Positions 55,045 to 55,129 of a DNA stretch of 64,000 bases are shown piece by piece. The stretch's first letter is position 1. Every line of letters begins with the position of its first letter. A program made the translations under genes and the position numbers. Source of the stretch: Staphylococcus phage LY01; sequence record OR836606.1, one strand, 5' to 3'. Under the pieces are notes generated by a model. It searched no databases, was not told the origin of the DNA, and saw only the letters and a list, made by a program, of their open reading frames with translations.

Positions 55045-55129
55045 CTCACTTTCATAATTTAATATTACTTTGTTACGAATAAGGTGCGGAAATATTTTTT
55101 TTTATAAAATCTTTTAAATGTTATGAGAT

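Follow-up and report, generated by a model that had tools for sequence, protein, structure and literature searches.

Predicted competition between an intron-closing helix and an omegaRNA stem-loop for one strand in a tnpB-only IStron of a Staphylococcus jumbo phage gyrA gene

An IStron interrupts the phage gyrA-like gene

IStrons are self-splicing group I introns fused to TnpB transposons. One such element, IS607-related and carrying tnpB only, interrupts gyrA of an LY01-like Staphylococcus jumbo phage, within the 64,000-nt stretch of phage LY01 DNA (OR836606.1; 24% GC) that we analysed and refer to as the window. Every gene around the IStron is on the minus strand, and the RNA runs from 55600 to 53600. 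The 5' exon belongs to a phage gyrA-like gene (55608..58362, minus strand; Pfam DNA_topoisoIV, 4e–92), and the corresponding ORF (58362..55600) encodes GyrA/topoisomerase IV subunit A with an intein, according to Pfam. The 3' exon (52796..53607, minus strand) encodes the GyrA C-terminal domain (Pfam DNA_gyraseA_C, 4e–25) and is part of an ORF that spans 53617..52796. The intein of the 5' exon (in the minus-strand ORF 55600-58362) includes a LAGLIDADG domain (Pfam Intein_splicing and LAGLIDADG_3). Hence, a single gene carries self-splicing elements acting at the protein level and at the RNA level.

Alignment to the uninterrupted gyrA of phage Madawaska defined the exon junctions and delimited the whole IStron to 2,000 nt at 53608..55607 (minus strand). 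In the window the junctions, marked here by slashes, read GATGGTG/TTTGTTAACAG ... TTGTTAACTG/ATATACC, and the uninterrupted Madawaska sequence reads GATGGTGATATACC; the intron-less gyrA target across the junction is GATGGTG/ATATACCGTT. The placement is ambiguous by 2 nt (TG), and 55607..53608 is the sole register in which the intron ends in G. The boundaries of the IStron are thus exon junctions, with the intron-terminal G at 53608, and removal of the element restores the gyrA frame (...KLSDG-DIPLNIF...). The gene is uninterrupted at the same site in the related jumbo phages Madawaska, MarsHill, PALS_2 and S6. The 5' exon ends in ...GATGGTG, not in GG, and shares TG with the right end of the element. 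Judging from the sequence, this common TG could be the serine-recombinase crossover core, unlike the GG of characterised IS607 IStrons. No tnpA of the IS607 kind was found among the ORFs and Pfam domains of the element. A 9-mer, TTTGTTAAC, is present at both IStron ends, at its start (55607-55599) and just before the terminal TG (53618-53610).

From 5' to 3' the IStron consists of the group I ribozyme, a repeat arm (arm A), tnpB, the omegaRNA including the other repeat arm (arm B), and a 10-nt tail with the terminal G. The tnpB gene (53824..55029, minus strand) encodes 401 aa from its ATG and matches Pfam OrfB_IS605, Cas12f1-like_TNB and HTH_OrfB_IS605 as well as NCBIfam guided_TnpB (200 bits); the ORF extends to a GTG at 55044 if this alternative start is taken. 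The product is 100% identical to a protein of Staphylococcus phage LY01. Its gene is located downstream of the last ribozyme hairpin (P9.x) and arm A, on the same strand as the intron. The tail, UUGUUAACUG (53608..53617, minus strand; placed by the Madawaska alignment), ends with the G at 53608, which is the 3' splice site and also the boundary between omegaRNA scaffold and guide. The guide itself would be the first bases of the 3' exon.

The ribozyme core (P2–P9) was located at 55141..55532 (minus strand) with Rfam Intron_gpI, nhmmer and the group I R and S motifs. A 561-nt stretch scanned alone (55080-55640) matches the full Intron_gpI model (positions 1-253) with 29.9 bits (E 9.5e–6), below the gathering score of 50. 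Rfam reports the ribozyme in this short-stretch scan only; scans of a 4-kb region and of the whole 64-kb window did not detect it, so routine annotation will overlook IStrons of this type. Motif searches (minus strand) place the R element, GTTCAACGACTA, at 55297-55286 and the S element, ATATAGTC, at 55171-55164. An nhmmer profile of six related ribozymes matches 55617-55113, and the ribozymes found upstream of related tnpB genes are homologous to that of the IStron (nhmmer, E 2e–130). A sequence-only reading had put arm A just 3' of the S element. Arm A does lie on its 3' side, with about 40 nt in between, a P9-type region with a GAAA-loop hairpin (55152-55131). This P9.x hairpin, UGAGACUC-GAAA-GAGAAUCUCA (55131..55152, minus strand), adjoins arm A, and the full-length fold pairs 55131-55133 with 55152-55150. 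In the closest relative of the element (L038, see below) its counterpart is CGAAGCCU-GAAA-GGGACCUUCG, with both sides of the outer stem changed.

A long inverted repeat brackets tnpB

A repeat search revealed an inverted repeat with 31-nt arms at 53619-53649 and 55099-55129, which are 90% complementary and 1449 nt apart. That an inverted repeat brackets tnpB within the IStron had been noticed in the sequence-only reading, and the string quoted there, ATAAAATCTTTTAAATGTTATGAGAT, is found exactly at 55104-55129. Combining the repeat search with the full-length fold, pair probabilities and covariation, we delimited arm A (the 5' IR) to 55102..55130 (minus strand; GAUCUCAUAACAUUUAAAAGAUUUUAUAA, which includes the segment CUCAUAAC). 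Arm B (the 3' IR) was delimited from the repeat search, folds and covariation to 53618..53646 (minus strand). It had been taken for the terminus of the element, a placement corrected by the Madawaska alignment, which puts the 3' end at 53608, 10 nt past arm B.

The unconstrained MFE fold of the 2040-nt pre-mRNA, i.e. the full-intron folding proposed earlier as a check, yields the arm A:arm B helix, with 55130-55102 paired with 53618-53646. The helix contains 28 pairs (23 A-U, or 82%, 3 G-C and 2 G-U) and one G/G mismatch at 55111/53637. Its core is a perfect 18-bp duplex, and pair probabilities are 0.90–1.0 for the 19 pairs for which they were computed (55130-55112). A perfect inverted repeat of at least 18 nt within 3 kb occurs once in the window, as arm A/arm B; the chance expectation from 40 dinucleotide shuffles is a mean of 0.075 and a maximum of 1. 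The ungapped helix score for the 110 nt that follow the S element against the 400 nt downstream of tnpB is 55, compared with a mean of 23.4 and a maximum of 32 for shuffled sequences (n = 100). Both the repeat count and the helix score rule out a chance origin. RNAduplex applied to long flanks returned sprawling, uninformative duplexes, and ungapped helix scoring and full-length folds were used instead. We conclude that the inverted repeat is real and, judging from the sequence evidence, very likely functional.

A P9.0/P10-like role had been suggested for the helix. In group I introns, P10 joins the internal guide sequence, near the intron's 5' end, to the start of the 3' exon, and in P9.0 the bases immediately before the terminal G make a contact of 2–3 bp with J7/9. 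Neither identity fits. P10 was rejected because both arms are intronic, arm A follows P9 on its 3' side, and arm B stops 10 nt short of the splice site; P9.0 was rejected because the helix has 28 pairs, a 10-nt tail separates it from the terminal G, and its 5' strand comes after the P9.x hairpin. The folding model instead describes a peripheral helix that is wholly intronic, stacks on the P9.x hairpin, closes the tnpB loop and leaves the 10-nt tail free. It is the counterpart of the 'IR stem' reported by Tourasse, Stabell and Kolsto (2014, PMC4227781), who found inverted repeats flanking the ORF region of all IStrons and described the IR stem of the IS607 type as long (15–34 bp) and >80% AU; the arm A:arm B helix falls within these ranges and flanks the ORF region in the same way.

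Covariation supports pairing across tnpB

The closest relative, L038, is found on a metagenomic contig. Its TnpB is 64% identical to that of the window IStron, and its parts come in the same order: ribozyme, GAAA-loop hairpin, arm A (1556-1588), tnpB, omegaRNA, arm B (3044-3076) and a 9–10-nt tail. Counted over 30 helix pairs in the window and L038, paired cells make up 98.3%. Both bases differ in five pairs (window to L038: A-U to G-C, C-G to U-A, A-U to G-C, U-A to C-G and A-U to C-G), three changed one-sidedly, to G-U, and none is broken; the G/G mismatch of the window helix is a C-G pair in L038. When the partners were slid by 1–3 columns as a control, 40–53% of cells were paired, with 0–1 both-sided changes. 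The both-sided changes come from a single sequence pair, L038 being the one close homologue with both arms. Of the non-Watson-Crick positions in the two helices, 5/7 are G-U on the transcribed strand, which points to an RNA helix and not to protein-binding DNA symmetry. Overall, these comparative data, together with the presence of both arms in one transcript, strongly indicate that the arms pair in the intron RNA across tnpB, as the sequence-only reading had it, and the covariation across homologues proposed there as a check is seen in the five both-sided changes of this one sequence pair.

A second, more distant subfamily comprises L042, L044, L045 and L048 (Listeria phage LPJP1), with right ends ...TATAGCAG. 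All four have the ribozyme and, at equivalent positions, arms of unrelated sequence. These arms can pair over 26 continuous nt in L042, 12 + 7 nt in L044, 12 + 5 nt in L045 and 11 + 5 nt in L048; in the latter three, arm B is in two parts flanking a small persistent hairpin. Unconstrained full-length folds contain the long-range helix in 5/6 elements, and only that of LPJP1 lacks it, despite the 11 + 5 complementary bases. The 9-nt tails are CUGUAACAG in L038, AUAUAGCAG in L042 and UUAUAGCAG in L044, and L045 and L048 likewise end in AUAGCAG.

Related modules without an intron provide a further comparison. Staphylococcus phage Machias (MW349128, 272224-273668) has a tnpB and omegaRNA 87–89% identical to those of the IStron and no intron. 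Arm A was not found in this copy, in two ORF-less omegaRNA/right-end copies of the window, or in a second tnpB locus of the window; the terminal omegaRNA stem-loop is kept in all of them. Hence, arm A is part of the intron and not of the IS.

Arm B has a second partner in the omegaRNA

The omegaRNA scaffold, or right end, occupies 53608..53805 (minus strand) and is conserved in five copies, according to alignment and folds: the alignment included the window IStron, Machias and the two ORF-less window copies, and L038 was compared as the fifth. Similarity among the four aligned copies starts about 20 nt past the tnpB stop codon and stops at a shared ...CTG, beyond which they diverge; the L038 omegaRNA is similarly arranged and ends in ...CAG. 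The stem-loops are conserved with some covariation (RNAalifold, RNAfold), as befits a structured RNA. In every copy, the last stem-loop pairs an internal 5' strand (53673..53700, minus strand; RNAalifold, RNAfold) with the arm-B strand. The internal strand is the equivalent of the '3' DR' of Tourasse et al., which resembles the 5' IR, and it shares AUC.CA...UUUAAAA with arm A; it is not directly adjacent to arm B, a variable loop lying between them. Arm B is therefore one strand of the long-range helix and also the 3' strand of the terminal omegaRNA stem-loop, which makes the two folds mutually exclusive. The earlier claim that the helix sequesters part of the omegaRNA scaffold is thereby upheld, and the arm common to both exclusive folds provides the structural basis for competition between splicing and omegaRNA that the same reading had put forward.

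In the basal part of the stem, AAAAUC:GAUUUU of the window is AGAAUC:GAUUCU in L038, and arm A changes from A to G (columns 2/101). The upper stem has UUUAAAAC:GUUUUAAA in the window and UUUAACAC:GUGUUAAA in L038, with A in arm A replaced by C (columns 20/83). Two arm-B substitutions relative to L038 (U to C and U to G) are thus matched in arm A and in the internal strand alike. This three-way covariation was obtained from individual folds and direct reading, not from the pair-count tool, because MAFFT misaligned the L038 internal strand by 2 nt. The arm-B triplet UGU pairs with arm A, whereas the omegaRNA stem has it in an internal loop; two copies without arm A show free variation at this position (CAU, CGC). 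For the second subfamily, the two basal strands of the terminal stem-loop are each complementary to arm A, and the upper hairpin can persist. Since two arm-B changes are matched in both partners, both alternative folds appear, from the sequence comparison, to be under selection.

A proposed switch between splicing and guide RNA

The predicted energies of the alternatives differ considerably: –31.4 kcal/mol for the arm A:arm B duplex, –10.4 kcal/mol for the duplex of the internal strand with arm B and –14.6 kcal/mol for the terminal omegaRNA stem-loop alone, with a predicted cost of 19 kcal/mol for forcing arm A to be single-stranded in the full transcript. By these values the intron fold should dominate at equilibrium, and we infer that the omegaRNA must then arise kinetically, through co-transcriptional folding, or by TnpB capture. 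A kinetic route is suggested because the local partner is transcribed just ahead of arm B.

We propose the following mechanism, which, resting on sequence comparison and fold models, we consider quite probable. Arm A, directly 3' of the last ribozyme hairpin, would pair with arm B to form the AU-rich peripheral IR stem, which would enclose 1.45 kb (tnpB and most of the omegaRNA) as a closed loop. The stem would return the 10-nt tail with its terminal G to the catalytic core and so make the 3' splice site usable. Arm A and the internal omegaRNA strand (53700-53673) would compete for arm B: the intron fold would lead to splicing and restore gyrA, and the omegaRNA fold would yield a guide for TnpB in which the 3' exon is the spacer. 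Because splicing cuts the scaffold from the guide, the two outcomes would be exclusive. Both the need of the helix for splicing and the fold that wins in the cell are inferred. In CboIStron, splicing persisted when the SL5 3' strand was mutated on one side only (PMC13521648), so this strand's exact sequence, and perhaps also extensive pairing to a 5' IR, may not be a strict requirement there.

Alternative explanations

The repeat might act in DNA, as vestigial or functional terminal inverted repeats of an IS607-type transposon that merged with the intron, both ends being bound by the same recombinase, with no RNA pairing at all. Imperfect AT-rich inverted repeats are reported at IS607-family ends (PMC4227781), arm B is indeed at the right end, and the relative LPJP1 encodes an IS607 serine recombinase (NF033518, 178 bits versus a cut-off of 110). 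However, about 480 nt lie between the internal arm A and the left end that is in fact mobilised, and arm A is missing from the intron-less copies of the same tnpB/omegaRNA module, so that it is not part of the IS. Moreover, the window element has no tnpA, its non-Watson-Crick positions are mostly sense-strand G-U, as expected of RNA helices and not of symmetric protein sites, and IS607 elements are without inverted repeats according to the Sternberg group (10.1101/2023.11.20.567912). Transposon terminal inverted repeats were rejected, and we regard a DNA-level role as extremely unlikely. It is very unlikely, too, that the repeats mainly serve or result from DNA rearrangement, as scars or substrates of ORF gain or loss, with RNA pairing incidental. 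Here one can point to a perfect 14-nt direct repeat, AGATTTTATAAAAA, that flanks the tnpB ORF (55112-55099 and 53825-53812), to the DR-dependent loss of the ORF module seen in BcISt1 (Tourasse et al., PMC4227781) and to the ORF-less omegaRNA/right-end modules of the same window. But rearrangement leaves the arm A-arm B complementarity and the both-sided changes unexplained, and the ORF-less window copies have neither arm A nor ribozyme and are thus not simple DR-mediated deletions of the IStron. The idea is compatible with an RNA helix and does not replace it.

Two further readings accept the helix and differ in what it is for. Arm A could be mainly regulatory, an anti-omegaRNA element that silences TnpB, with the 3' splice site found through the tail alone. 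The predicted energies, which strongly favour arm A:arm B over the terminal omegaRNA stem, are in line with such a function, as is the need of CboIStron splicing for only about 18–20 nt of the right end; yet these minimal 18–20 nt would take in the proximal part of arm B plus the tail. IR stems are conserved across IStrons, including ORF-less derivatives that still splice (PMC4227781), and a closing helix is normally required in introns with kilobase insertions, which makes a mainly regulatory helix very improbable. In the LY01-like lineage, the strand exchange might instead be set strongly to splicing, with functional guides for the IStron-encoded TnpB supplied mainly in trans from the ORF-less modules without arm A. 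The stability advantage of about 20 kcal/mol of arm A:arm B over the omegaRNA stem fits an insertion in the probably essential gyrA; we hold this arrangement to be unlikely; if true, the labour would be divided, with a 'silent' IStron encoding the protein and free-standing modules providing the guides. Overall, we favour the IR stem that serves splicing and competes with the omegaRNA fold for arm B.

Comparison with known IStrons and related introns

The sequence-only reading proves essentially correct, and what it proposed is already published: the IR stem was described in 2014, and antagonism between splicing and omegaRNA has been demonstrated experimentally by the Sternberg laboratory (2023–2026; 10.1101/2023.11.20.567912; PMC13521648). 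The window element resembles group B/IS607-type IStrons (BcISt1, CbISt1-4) in that the ORF region lies past the last P9 sub-domain within a long helix of >80% AU, and in that a second sequence similar to the 5' arm, able to pair locally, is present upstream of the 3' arm. The known elements likewise have a 3' DR similar to the 5' IR, and local pairing of this 3' DR with the 3' IR is possible (PMC4227781). The 2014 paper predates the omegaRNA, so the 3' DR/3' IR hairpin was not tied to a guide RNA there. Variants with tnpB only and phage-borne examples, in C. botulinum phages, are also on record for group B IStrons (PMC4227781). In contrast to BcISt1 and CbISt1-4, the window IStron resides in a Staphylococcus jumbo phage and targets gyrA, its insertion site ends in ...GGTG and not in GG, and its local partner is about 25–50 nt upstream of arm B, across a variable loop, whereas theirs is immediately adjacent.

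In CboIStron and CseIStron-1 (Zedaveinyte et al.; Mortman and Sternberg 2026), as here, the right end serves both intron and omegaRNA, the 3'-most omegaRNA stem-loop alone overlaps the intron structure, and splicing and guide production exclude each other. Stabilising the base of that stem-loop abolishes splicing, and disrupting the omegaRNA stimulates it. The last 18–20 nt of the right end and SL5 sequences are needed for splicing (10.1101/2023.11.20.567912), and omegaRNA structure or folding and TnpB repress it (10.1101/2023.11.20.567912; PMC13521648). Those papers ascribe the overlap mainly to 3' splice-site/internal-guide pairing and a pseudoknot, with no displacement by a distal 5' arm described in the accessible text. 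In the window, the omegaRNA fold competes with an explicit 28-bp helix, whose predicted stability far exceeds that of the omegaRNA stem, and the predicted bias is towards the intron fold, the opposite of the 'omegaRNA preferred' conclusion for CboIStron. IA2-type homing-endonuclease introns of phages likewise loop out a coding insert with a peripheral helix and keep the core and 3' splice site close; unlike in those introns, a transposon module is inserted here, with a 3' UTR that is itself a guide RNA, so the closing helix has a rival fold. A literature search on phage or gyrase IStrons added nothing further.

The IStron would thus be a natural example of an RNA that chooses between removing itself from a phage gene and guiding the TnpB nuclease. 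What is new is an explicit three-strand exchange, in which arm B pairs with either of two partners that both covary with it, and the extension of IStrons to Staphylococcus and Listeria jumbo phages and to a non-GG target (...GGTG). This comparative picture complements the published mutational work, which localised the conflict to the base of the last omegaRNA stem-loop. These additions are modest: the IR stem and the antagonism were already known, and no new kind of mechanism is revealed.

Related modules and distant loci

The two ORF-less omegaRNA/right-end copies lie at 2340-2619 and 4520-4810 on the plus strand, each about 290 nt long. They have in common an additional left part of about 120 nt that is not ribozyme, end in ...GAGATTTTACAGCTG and are without arm A. 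The copy at 4520-4810 apparently lies close to the 3' end of a gene on the plus strand whose product has a glycine-rich C-terminus (...GGSGGD/GGSAEDQSN*). From their sequence, both could be MITE-like derivatives able to supply guide RNAs in trans. The second tnpB of the window (P0012, 62164-63483, minus strand) is 37% identical to the IStron TnpB. It is intergenic, behind a terminator-like hairpin, has neither ribozyme nor arm A, and its right end, ...TTATATAGCAG, is as in L042, L044, L045 and LPJP1. The Machias copy is also intergenic, located behind an annotated terminator with a ribosome-binding site of its own, and its homology to the IStron begins exactly at the tnpB start codon.

In the IStron itself, the unit of the direct repeat that copies the distal half of arm A (AGAUUUUAUAAAAA; 53812..53825, minus strand; repeat search) overlaps the stop codon of tnpB, and the fold shows it as a small local hairpin. 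The arrangement of direct repeats around tnpB is similar in L038. By analogy with the 5' DR and 3' DR of BcISt1, the 14-nt repeat may be a recombination site or a scar of ORF gain or loss.

We also looked for more distant relatives. A single-protein search of viral contigs returned no relatives, an omegaRNA 18-mer gave chance matches only in viral and genome contigs (checked with blastn), and two longer patterns (omegaRNA and the P7–P9 region) had no match in viral contigs; omegaRNA blastn against GenBank phages matched phage Machias alone. With TnpB profiles, 160 loci of about 30% identity were retrieved from metagenome and viral contigs. A related ribozyme was detectable in 4/160, and these four have repeats at different places. 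In L042, a second pair of group I R/S motifs is present about 900 nt upstream of the IStron ribozyme (1901-2030); the nhmmer ribozyme profile missed it. L174 (1388-1410/2589-2611) and L176 (994-1010/2611-2627), two distant loci on viral contigs that carry a fragment of a related ribozyme, have an inverted repeat of 17–23 bp around the tnpB ORF only. Their 3' arm comes 1–6 nt past the TnpB match, so the omegaRNA would fall outside the closed loop, unlike in the window.
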